From sequence record PZ019086.1: a stretch of 64,000 nucleotides of DNA; one strand, 5' to 3'. Numbering within the stretch: the stretch's first letter is position 1; each line of letters starts with the position of its first letter. Below the pieces are notes generated by a model. That model saw only the letters and a program-made list of their open reading frames with translations, made no database searches and was not told the origin of the DNA. Source of the stretch: a phage. Made by a program: the position numbers and the translations under genes. Below are positions 1-2,775 of the stretch, piece by piece.

Positions 1-2
1 CA

Positions 3-224
3 AACGGGCTTAAAGCAATCGTTCTTGAAGAAACAACCTGCGAATTCTGCGGAATGATAGGCAAGAAATGCGTTATCGCAGCGCATAGAAATTTCTGCAA
101 GAAAAATCCAAATGGACGCAAGAAAACTGAAAAGACTGGTACTTGCGTCCATTGTGGTAAAGTTACCACTTTCGGAAATTTATCAAGATGGCATAATGAT
201 AATTGTAAATATAAACCTAGCTAA
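3..224 (+). CDS. Partial CDS (C-terminal fragment entering from upstream of the window) with two C-x2-C...H-x3-C zinc-binding motifs; converges on gene 46
   Basis: Frame 3 is open from position 3 to TAA at 222-224; translation ...CEFCG...HRNFC...CVHCG...WHNDNC; its end overlaps the gene 46 stop. Confidence 0.3.
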   Translation, partial: NGLKAIVLEETTCEFCGMIGKKCVIAAHRNFCKKNPNGRKKTEKTGTCVHCGKVTTFGNLSRWHNDNCKYKPS

Positions 225-1905
225 TCTTAGCTAAACTAAATCTACCAACTTTTTCCATTTGAATGTGCTGACCATATTCCTGTGGGTCATGGTCTTTATG
301 CGAAATTATGAAGAAGTTGGTATCCTTCAAACCATCTAAAATTTTAGCCACATTTTTAATACCTTCAGCATCAAATGCACCGTCATATACTTCATCAAGA
401 AATAAACAACTTATTTTAACACCTGAAACTTTTTCAGCAATATCACGCCAAGTAAATAAAAGAGCAATATCAATTCGCGCTTTTTCACCTTGACTAAATG
501 AAGCATAACTAAAATCTTCACGACCACGGGATTTAATTGTCTCATTAAATTCTTCATCTAATGTAAACACATAATCCGCTTCCATTATTTTAAGATAATG
601 GTTAATCTGCTTATTAAATAATGGAATGTACTTTTTAATAATAGCACCTTTAATACCAGAATCTTTGAGCATATCAGTCAAAATTCCTCTATGGTATTTT
701 TCCATTACTAAATTAGTTTTTGTCTTAACAATTTTATCAAGTTCTTCTTGAAGCAGTGCTATTTCATCAGCATGATCAATAAACTCAGATGATGCTTTTT
801 CTATAGCCGCTTTAACCTTTTTAGCTTTATCTACCGTCGTGATTAGAGATTGCTTTTTATTGCGAATATCATTCGCCAACGTCTGCTGGGTTTTAATATT
901 ATCTCGGTATTCATCAACAAGAACTTTTAAATTATCACGATGTGTTGAAAGCTGTTCAAATGAATGCGTGCATTCAGAAACTTTATCTTTAATTTTAGAA
1001 ACAACTTTATCACCGGAACTTAATTGTGACAAACAGGTTGGACATAATCCACCTTCGTGATACATATTAATGACTTTATTATACGAGTCAATTTTTGATT
1101 TAATTAAAAATGCTTCTTGACCGATTTTATCAAATGCATCAGTCGGGTCTTCATCCAAAACAATATTAACTAATCTTTCATTAGCTTCTTCTATTTCCGA
1201 TTTTAACGTTCTAGCTTCTTTTGCCAAATCATCATACATATTCTGCAGACGAGTAAGGTTATCACCAGTTAATTTTTTCTGGCGTTCAACGTTATCATTA
1301 TATATTTTAATTTGTTGGATAATACTATCTTTTTTAACATCAAGCACTTGGTTTTGTGAATTTAATTCACGTATTAGTGCTTTATTAAGCTTATCCATTT
1401 CAGCTAATGTTCCTACCTCAAGCAGGTCTTCCACAAGCTTTCTTCGCGCAGGGGTCGACAAACCCATGAAAGGGGTATACCCTGCTGTACCAAGGACAAC
1501 AATCTGCTTGAAACTGGCATATGACATTCCGATAAGCTGTTCAAATTCTGCTTGGAAATCTTTACTGCTGGCAGATTCATTAAGACGTGTACCGTTAACG
1601 GTGATTTCGAAAACGTTTGGTTTTTGTCCTCTTTTGATATAGTACTTTTTCTCATCATATTCCATCCACAGTTCAACTAAAAGTTCTTTCTTATTTGTGC
1701 TGTTTATTAATTGGCCTTTCTTTACATCACGGAATGGCTTGCCAAAAAGCCCAAATGTGATGGCTTCTAACATAGTAGACTTACCACCACCATTTCGCCC
1801 AGTAATAAGAGTTTTTTGAACCTTATCTAATTGAATGTCAACTCCATTTTGACCAACTGACATTATATTTTTATATTTTACTCTATTAAGTTTAAATGAT
1901 TTCAT
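217..1905 (-). CDS. 46: Recombination endonuclease ATPase subunit gp46 (SbcC/Rad50-like)
   Basis: 562 aa; N-terminal Walker A GRNGGGKST; long coiled-coil middle; C-terminal Walker B LFLDEV; sits beside an SbcD-like gene as in T4. Confidence 0.9.
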   Translation of the reverse strand: MKSFKLNRVKYKNIMSVGQNGVDIQLDKVQKTLITGRNGGGKSTMLEAITFGLFGKPFRDVKKGQLINSTNKKELLVELWMEYDEKKYYIKRGQKPNVFEITVNGTRLNESASSKDFQAEFEQLIGMSYASFKQIVVLGTAGYTPFMGLSTPARRKLVEDLLEVGTLAEMDKLNKALIRELNSQNQVLDVKKDSIIQQIKIYNDNVERQKKLTGDNLTRLQNMYDDLAKEARTLKSEIEEANERLVNIVLDEDPTDAFDKIGQEAFLIKSKIDSYNKVINMYHEGGLCPTCLSQLSSGDKVVSKIKDKVSECTHSFEQLSTHRDNLKVLVDEYRDNIKTQQTLANDIRNKKQSLITTVDKAKKVKAAIEKASSEFIDHADEIALLQEELDKIVKTKTNLVMEKYHRGILTDMLKDSGIKGAIIKKYIPLFNKQINHYLKIMEADYVFTLDEEFNETIKSRGREDFSYASFSQGEKARIDIALLFTWRDIAEKVSGVKISCLFLDEVYDGAFDAEGIKNVAKILDGLKDTNFFIISHKDHDPQEYGQHIQMEKVGRFSLAKIS

Positions 1906-1920
1906 TTTGTATCCAATTGT

Positions 1921-2775
1921 TCACAATGAAGAAAATTCTTTAACTAAAGCCTGTAATGAAGCCTCTATTGGATATCCATTCTTAACTAACATTTTCCTAA
2001 ACATCACATGTTTAGGACGATTATATGATATCCACAATTCATACAATTTATCTTTATTATCCCAATGATAGCCTTTTCGTCGAGATGCTATATGAGCTTT
2101 TCTAATCTCCGGATTTTTCCAACTAGCGGCTACTGAATTTGATATAGCTATTTTATATTCAGGTTTTGATAAAGCAACACGAACAGCCTTTTGGTGTTTA
2201 ATTTTATTTTCTTCGTTATTAAACCATTCCCTTGAAGCCATTGAAATTTTTTGTTTTGTTTTAAAATTATTTAATCTTTCTTTGTTATCTTTCCTATTTT
2301 TTGCTACTGAAAAGTATTTTAATGCTCTTTCTCTAGCAGCATTTCTATTTTGTGGATTTGAATAATATTGTTGAAGCCTTTTTGATATTGTGTCACTTAC
2401 ATCTTGTTTTATAAAACTATATTCAGCAGCTATTAAATCAACTTCGGCTAAAGATAAATTTTTATATGTTTTTCCTGACATCATTCTATTTAAAGCATTT
2501 AGCATTTTTCCATTTTTACCTTTTGCTAATAAGAAATGTGCTTTAAAATGATTAAAATGACTTAAATTAACTAAATTCCATGTAGATTTTAAATATTCAG
2601 GAAATATTGATTTAGGAAGCACATGGTGTGCTTCCGTTTTACCTGGAGTTTTAACAGTTGAATTCATAGAAATAAAATTAATGTAAGACTTGGCGTCTTC
2701 TTCACTCAACGCTAATTTTTCAACTAATTCCTTTATTAAAAATTCATCATTAATGTCAAGTTTAAAATTCTTCAC
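1921..2775 (-). mobile_element. Freestanding HNH homing endonuclease (Mob-like) with C-terminal NUMOD-like repeats
   Basis: 284 aa; motif EAHHVLPKS...NLVNLSHFNHFKAH typical of HNH Mob proteins; basic repeated C-terminal segments; lies between genes 46 and 47. Confidence 0.55.

Follow-up and report, generated by a model that had tools for sequence, protein, structure and literature searches.

At the left edge of a 64,000-nucleotide stretch of phage DNA (sequence record PZ019086.1; this whole stretch is called the window below) lies a short coding fragment, and the question arises to which gene it belongs and how it came to stand beside gene 46. The fragment runs against the local array, because the sizeable ORFs between 217 and about 44 kb are essentially all on the minus strand; for ORFs of at least 120 aa, the only exceptions are a few short overlapping ones. 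The answer which we prefer, with a probability of roughly 85%, is that a free-standing gene on the plus strand, inserted between genes 45.2 and 46 and encoding a homing endonuclease of the Mob (HNH) family of T4, has its 3' end at positions 3..224. The features at this edge of the window are as follows:

3..224, plus strand: Mob-like HNH homing endonuclease gene, last 73 codons and stop, assigned by alignment to relatives
39..98, plus strand: zinc-finger unit 2 of 3, CEFC-x11-HRNFC, assigned by motif, alignment with I-TevIII finger 1 and structure model (hairpin plus helix at residues 175-197)
144..206, plus strand: zinc-finger unit 3 of 3, CVHC-x12-HNDNC, the conserved, family-wide C-terminal finger, assigned by motif and alignment with I-TevIII finger 2
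217..1905, minus strand: gene 46, Rad50/SbcC-like recombination nuclease subunit of 562 aa, the neighbour and likely target
217..224: 8-nt overlap between the endonuclease gene and gene 46 at their convergent 3' ends

On the plus strand, frame 3 stays open between base 3 and the TAA at 222-224, and its translation gives 73 residues, NGLKAIVLEETTCEFCGMIGKKCVIAAHRNFCKKNPNGRKKTEKTGTCVHCGKVTTFGNLSRWHNDNCKYKPS*. The sequence-only reading of this DNA had described the frame as open from the window edge to 224 and opposite in strand to the early array, and both descriptions are accurate. It had also noticed two C-x2-C...H-x3-C units; two are indeed encoded by the fragment, but the full protein has three, the first of which lies upstream of the window edge. 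Similarly, the stop had been said to overlap that of gene 46, and while the two ORFs share 8 nt at their ends, the stop codons themselves are separate, CTA/TAG occupying 217-219 and TAA 222-224.

Under a mononucleotide composition model, 73 open codons in a row would occur with a probability of about 0.006. When all 64 kb were translated in six frames, the pattern C..C.{9,14}H...C was matched exactly twice, both times within 3..224. The remaining five frames over these bases contain stops, except for one antisense stretch without annotation. Since the region is AT-rich and this antisense stretch, about 70 codons long, is open across the same bases, the fragment could in principle be a chance open frame or the antisense of a minus-strand gene. 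We give this a negligible probability: more than 2,000 protein homologues were found (32 were aligned for conservation), the Cys and His ligands are invariant, copies of the gene differ mostly synonymously in plus-strand frame 3, and a minus-strand gene is annotated there in no record inspected. Beyond the 8-nt end of gene 46, no gene on that strand covers the fragment. The conservation pattern rules out both the chance ORF and the minus-strand gene as candidates.

The complete gene was seen in relatives. Positions 1-1200 of the window were compared with phage records by megablast, and about 650 T-even (Tequatrovirus) genomes matched, the closest being phage N2 with 99.2%. In N2 and in RB32 the frame extends upstream to an ATG, giving a gene of 717 nt (238 aa) between 45.2 and 46; early stop codons upstream, which would have spoken against a gene, are absent from these 99%-identical relatives. 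The first 495 nt of the gene lie upstream of the window, which aligns to its last 224 bases, and over 222 nt the window differs from the N2 gene by 1 nt, a Ser-to-Thr change. The catalytic half is thus outside the window, and its intactness in the window phage is deduced from relatives 98-99% identical to the window, in which the gene is full-length and intact. Because the window begins mid-gene and the N-terminal 165 codons are unseen, a defunct remnant could be imagined, of which only the zinc-finger tail is left while the nuclease half was deleted or broken upstream; the I-TevIII gene of T4 provides a precedent for such a finger-only remnant. This appears very unlikely, since the visible 222 nt are one base off an intact gene, the gene is covered to at least 93% in all 60 records carrying it, and pN/pS is low (values are given below).

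The protein is modular: an N-terminal HNH (His-Me finger) nuclease domain is followed by a short NUMOD3-like helix and three CCHC zinc fingers. The full protein matched phrog_655, "homing endonuclease", with an E value of 8.6e-69, and in the N-terminal 115 aa it shares 43% identity with T4 MobE (E 2e-29). Residues E24, H26, H27, N41, H50 and H54 are invariant in the alignment of 32 homologues and correspond to the HH...N...H...H pattern of HNH proteins. The AlphaFold2 model computed on the homologue alignment (pLDDT 88.6) shows a beta-beta-alpha HNH core and then three repeats of a beta-hairpin plus helix:

residues 121-140, 175-197 and 210-232: beta-hairpin plus helix finger modules (AlphaFold2 model)

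The HH...N...H(...H) motif is therefore placed on a beta-beta-alpha-metal fold, by which HNH/His-Me finger proteins are recognized. The Pfam model HNH (PF01844) scored 16.9 bits, below its gathering cut-off of 21.4, as was likewise the case for homologues; HNH membership thus rests on the homology to MobE and on the motif. Pfam searches with the fragment and with the full protein gave sub-threshold matches only (C1_1, Lar, NUMOD3, HNH), NCBIfam gave only a weak match to the IscB HNH model (23 bits against a cut-off of 175), and a sequence search of the PDB returned nothing significant. In the last unit (core RWHxDNC), C213, C216, H229 and C233 are invariant in 32/32 homologues, even in those with NUMOD3 repeats replacing fingers 1 and 2 in the middle region. 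The earlier suggestion that the fragment might be part of a mobile endonuclease or of its DNA-binding domain was therefore well founded: it is the C-terminal zinc-finger domain of a Mob-like HNH protein.

The type of finger could be narrowed down with the fragment alone, which matched phrog_27406 (5e-07), phrog_12324 (3e-06) and phrog_655 (1e-05); the profile lengths of the first two, 97 and 269, are those of the truncated I-TevIII of T4 and the full-length I-TevIII of RB3, respectively. In a pairwise alignment with the T4 I-TevIII remnant, identity was 40% over 63 residues (E 2e-10), and all eight ligands as well as the inter-finger "CK-NPN" linker were in register. The two units of the window, CX2CX11HX3C and CX2CX12HX3C, thus form a tandem C-terminal motif of the I-TevIII type. 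In I-TevIII, two CX2CX12-13HX3C motifs bind one zinc ion each, and finger mutation impairs both DNA binding and cleavage (PMC1865063). For the residues encoded in the window, sequence-specific DNA binding is the function with the best support, since the fingers of I-TevIII are homologous and were shown to bind DNA. Compared with classical C2H2 fingers, the predicted hairpin-plus-helix modules bear some resemblance, but the ligands are CCHC, and no Pfam finger model reached threshold; the top Foldseek matches were finger arrays of CTCF, at a non-significant E value of 0.011. With the homologues and the I-TevIII remnant as queries, no Pfam family was found which covers the finger, and the precomputed "domains" are generic sub-threshold matches to Cys-rich models. 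The I-TevIII remnant of T4 (locus L007, 2597-2887) is itself without any Pfam match.

Comparison of occupied and empty sites defined the inserted segment exactly. In N2, 786 nt (locus L001, 3451-4236) stand in place of 72 nt in T4 (locus L003, 5245-5316), which represents the empty site with a spacer of 55 nt between 45.2 and 46; genomes without the gene align with the window only from position 237 onwards. The part of the segment in the window is:

1..236, no strand assigned: right-hand part of the 786-nt segment, with the junction between 236 and 237

Both neighbouring genes are altered by the insertion. The tail of gp46 is provided by the insert and reads ...GRFSLAKIS* versus ...GRFTVMV* in T4, and 45.2 in carriers has a GTG-GCA start and a new ribosome-binding site from the insert (L001, 3451-3456, upstream of the window) versus the ATG of T4. 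In phage Lutter a promoter is annotated in the 46/45.2 spacer, which would be displaced by the insertion. A second right junction was observed in RB51 (locus L011, 2273-2986), RB68, ESH35 and REP2, where the gene is 3 nt shorter and ends in ...CKHKH*, and gp46 ends in ...GRFSVATIN. The cassette end seems to exist in a second haplotype here.

The insert of N2 contains a T4 late-promoter box without mismatch, TATAAATA, located 33 nt upstream of the ATG; this box is also present in the Dhakavirus copy described below. No sigma-70-like promoter was detected in the insert, and a terminator scan gave none between the convergent genes. Rfam revealed neither an intron nor any other RNA family at the locus, and the gene is therefore considered free-standing.

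The sequence on the two sides of the insertion was compared between 7 carriers, including the window, and 8 non-carriers. On the side of 45.2 the two groups are about 1% divergent right up to the junction. On the side of gene 46, divergence is 21-28% over the initial ~190 aligned positions (window 217-408), with 30 fixed differences, and past about 300 nt it is again about 1%, with zero fixed differences. The divergent tract is:

237..408, minus strand: endonuclease-linked allele of the gene 46 3' end, from 7 carriers versus 8 non-carriers

Database-wide, positions 225-420 of the window are matched with at least 90% identity in exactly 60 records and with about 82% or less in all others, with none between. 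The number of records with the gene, the number with the linked allele and the number with at least 95% for window 1-1200 agree, being 60 in each case, and the linkage of the gene to the gene 46 allele holds in every genome which was inspected individually. Inside the divergent tract a conserved island encodes the Rad50 H-loop region of gp46, ...FIISHKDHDPQEYGQH....

A divergent flank linked to a mobile gene is the classic footprint of intronless homing, in which the cassette moves together with a co-converted flank. The tract at 237..408 is therefore a candidate for co-conversion or self-immunity, and the target site is likely to lie there. The polymorphisms of the tract probably confer immunity on the carrier; the same argument from flank polymorphisms was made for MobE and nrdB (PMC2790892). 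In genomes without the gene, the linked divergent flank leads one to expect the target either in the spacer or within the final ~200 bp of gene 46. Non-carriers have two haplotypes of gene 46 at the window-equivalent positions 310-420, about 15% apart, with RB18 (locus L016) and ime09 (locus L017) on one side and the T4 type on the other. The haplotype of RB18 and ime09 resembles the carrier allele in part, and this mosaicism could trace past homing or loss.

From these observations we infer a cycle of the following kind. Transcription of the gene would occur late and begin at its own promoter, TATAAATA. When a T-even phage lacking the gene infects the same cell, the fingers would bind in or close to the 3' end of gene 46 or the 45.2/46 spacer, and the HNH domain would nick or cut at the bound site. 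During recombinational repair off the carrier genome, the cassette would then be copied in, and with it about 190 nt of the gene 46 allele of the carrier. The carrier itself would be protected by the divergence of about 25% in this stretch and by the replacement of its spacer.

One of the closest known systems is T4 MobE, an experimentally supported mobile HNH nicking enzyme (PMC2790892). Both genes are free-standing in a spacer between conserved genes (nrdA and nrdB in the case of mobE), both proteins have an N-terminal nuclease and a C-terminal DNA-binding part, and in both cases polymorphisms of the target gene separate carriers from non-carriers (for MobE: PMC2790892). The gene described here differs by its location at 45.2/46 on the strand opposite to its neighbours, by its late-promoter box, mobE being promoterless (PMC2790892), and by three C-terminal CCHC fingers, a region which the annotated T4 MobE (141 aa) lacks; MobE-like proteins of other phages align with the studied protein over their full length, with about 35% identity. 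A Mob-type N-terminal HNH domain joined to a protein-specific C-terminal domain, encoded by a free-standing gene which is present in some close relatives and absent from others at the same site, is typical of the Mob family, and all of this was found here. The family is further characterized by site-specific nicking or cleavage of alleles without the gene and by super-Mendelian inheritance in crosses, to which, for the studied gene, the linked flank of about 190 nt would be an indirect pointer.

I-TevIII, the HNH endonuclease of the nrdB group I intron of RB3, of which T4 contains a relic, has the C-terminal CX2CX11-13HX3C finger pair and the CK-NPN linker in common with the studied protein. 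It dimerises and makes a double-strand break. It has two fingers, whereas the studied protein has three, and the studied gene is located outside of and antisense to gene 46; since it is not encoded in an intron, it is not I-TevIII, although the domain is shared.

The element is already known, having been annotated since the RB32 genome, and it is ordinary for a T-even genome. ORF054w of RB32 and ORF057 of RB51 are the same gene at the same site, with identities of 98% (nucleotides) and 99.6% (protein). In the RB32 annotation it appears as [quoted passage not shown], in RefSeq as "homing endonuclease", and Petrov et al. (2010) counted it among the two mob-like HNH homing endonuclease genes of RB32 (PMC2993671). 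The copy in the window differs from that of RB32 by one Ser-to-Thr change, and the window phage contains in addition a second HNH gene which RB32 lacks. A literature search for an endonuclease at the 45.2/46 site or for "ORF054w" yielded no paper, and no experimental work on the gene was found.

At an identity of at least 97% the gene is present in 60 phage records, and one more contains it at 78%. The carriers are 60 of about 650 Tequatrovirus records with this gene 46, or about 9%. Six full-length copies gave pN/pS values of 0.02-0.13, the differences being mostly synonymous (12 synonymous changes and 1 non-synonymous change between N2 and RB32); the gene is therefore maintained by purifying selection. 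A pN/pS of 0.59 between N2 and Dhakavirus was discarded, since synonymous sites were saturated.

Copies at the same site and in the same convergent orientation were found in other groups. The Dhakavirus copy (locus L006, 3001-3717; 63.6% aa identity) is separated from gene 46 by a gap of 5 nt, while those of Cronobacter phage Cronuts, a Pseudotevenvirus (locus L004, 3001-3711; 44.1% aa), and of a Klebsiella phage (locus L005, 2995-3720; 42% aa) each overlap it by 14 nt. All of them have kept the three fingers. The adjacent gp46 and gp47 proteins have identities of 69.2% in Dhakavirus, 44.4/44.3% in Cronuts and 44.7/43.4% in the Klebsiella phage. Since the identities of the endonuclease track those of gp46/gp47, long residence at the site is suggested rather than recent or frequent transfer between genera; Petrov et al. 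saw no convincing evidence for such elements crossing between phage clusters (PMC2993671).

This pattern leaves room for a domesticated or dual role, i.e., the protein could be kept for a benefit to the phage and not mainly by ongoing selfish homing; possible benefits are the exclusion of markers of competing phages in the same cell, regulation through site-specific DNA binding, or late antisense transcription into gene 46. Several results would fit: the same-site, same-orientation copies in four genera with a divergence matching gp46/gp47 (63.6 versus 69.2%; 44.1 versus 44.4/44.3%), the strong purifying selection, the conservation of all three fingers in every genus, and the failure of the scan to detect a terminator between the late promoter and antisense gene 46. 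There is also the precedent of I-TevI, a homing endonuclease which is a repressor as well (PMC2988022). Nevertheless, we regard a mainly domesticated protein as unlikely, since the gene is dispensable, with carriers making up only about 9% of the Tequatrovirus records, the invariance of the HNH residues argues that the nuclease has been kept, and the linked divergent flank bears the mark of homing with co-conversion. Homing and domestication are compatible with each other and need not be exclusive.

A further gene of this kind is found in the surroundings:

1921..2775, minus strand: second Mob-like HNH homing endonuclease gene, 284 aa, between 46 and 46.1 (phrog_655, E 8e-45)

This second gene was found in 71 phage records; its relationship to the plus-strand gene is distant, with similarity limited to the HNH motif region. 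Both genes are present in N2 and in the window; RB32, slur07, UFV10 and OES_C-2 have only the plus-strand gene, RPN226 and Lutter only the one on the minus strand, and T4, RB59, RB5, RB18, ime09 and PEC04 neither. The two genes thus segregate independently. N2 has a third phrog_655 gene (L001, 1982-2869, minus strand, 295 aa, E 2e-31) between 45 and rpbA, outside the window, which RB32 and T4 lack. The idea that the neighbourhood of gene 46 is an insertion hotspot, put forward from the sequence alone, is supported by the independence of the second gene of the same PHROG and by the third one in N2.

For annotation, these results mean that a label such as new zinc-finger protein would be wrong for the fragment, which should be entered as a Mob-like HNH homing endonuclease gene (3' end). 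The CCHC finger of I-TevIII type is a widespread DNA-binding module of Mob endonucleases which is without a curated Pfam model. In the window phage, gene 46 is accompanied by two independent selfish elements, one on each flank, and the full linkage of the plus-strand cassette with a piece of gene 46 of ~190 nt, ~25% diverged, provides a concrete and testable prediction of the cut site. A more speculative thought, which we consider rather improbable, is that the lineage, instead of being a transient invader, might have been a partner of the 3' end of gene 46 since ancient times. In at least four genera of the Straboviridae the endonuclease is convergent with gp46 and overlaps its last codons or lies a few bases from them, and the cassette carries its own allele of the gp46 C-terminus beside the Rad50 H-loop. 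If the partnership were indeed old, functional coupling would be possible: the endonuclease might target the gene of the gp46/47 nuclease which resects its breaks, or gene 46 might be shut off late in infection by antisense read-through of the late endonuclease transcript.
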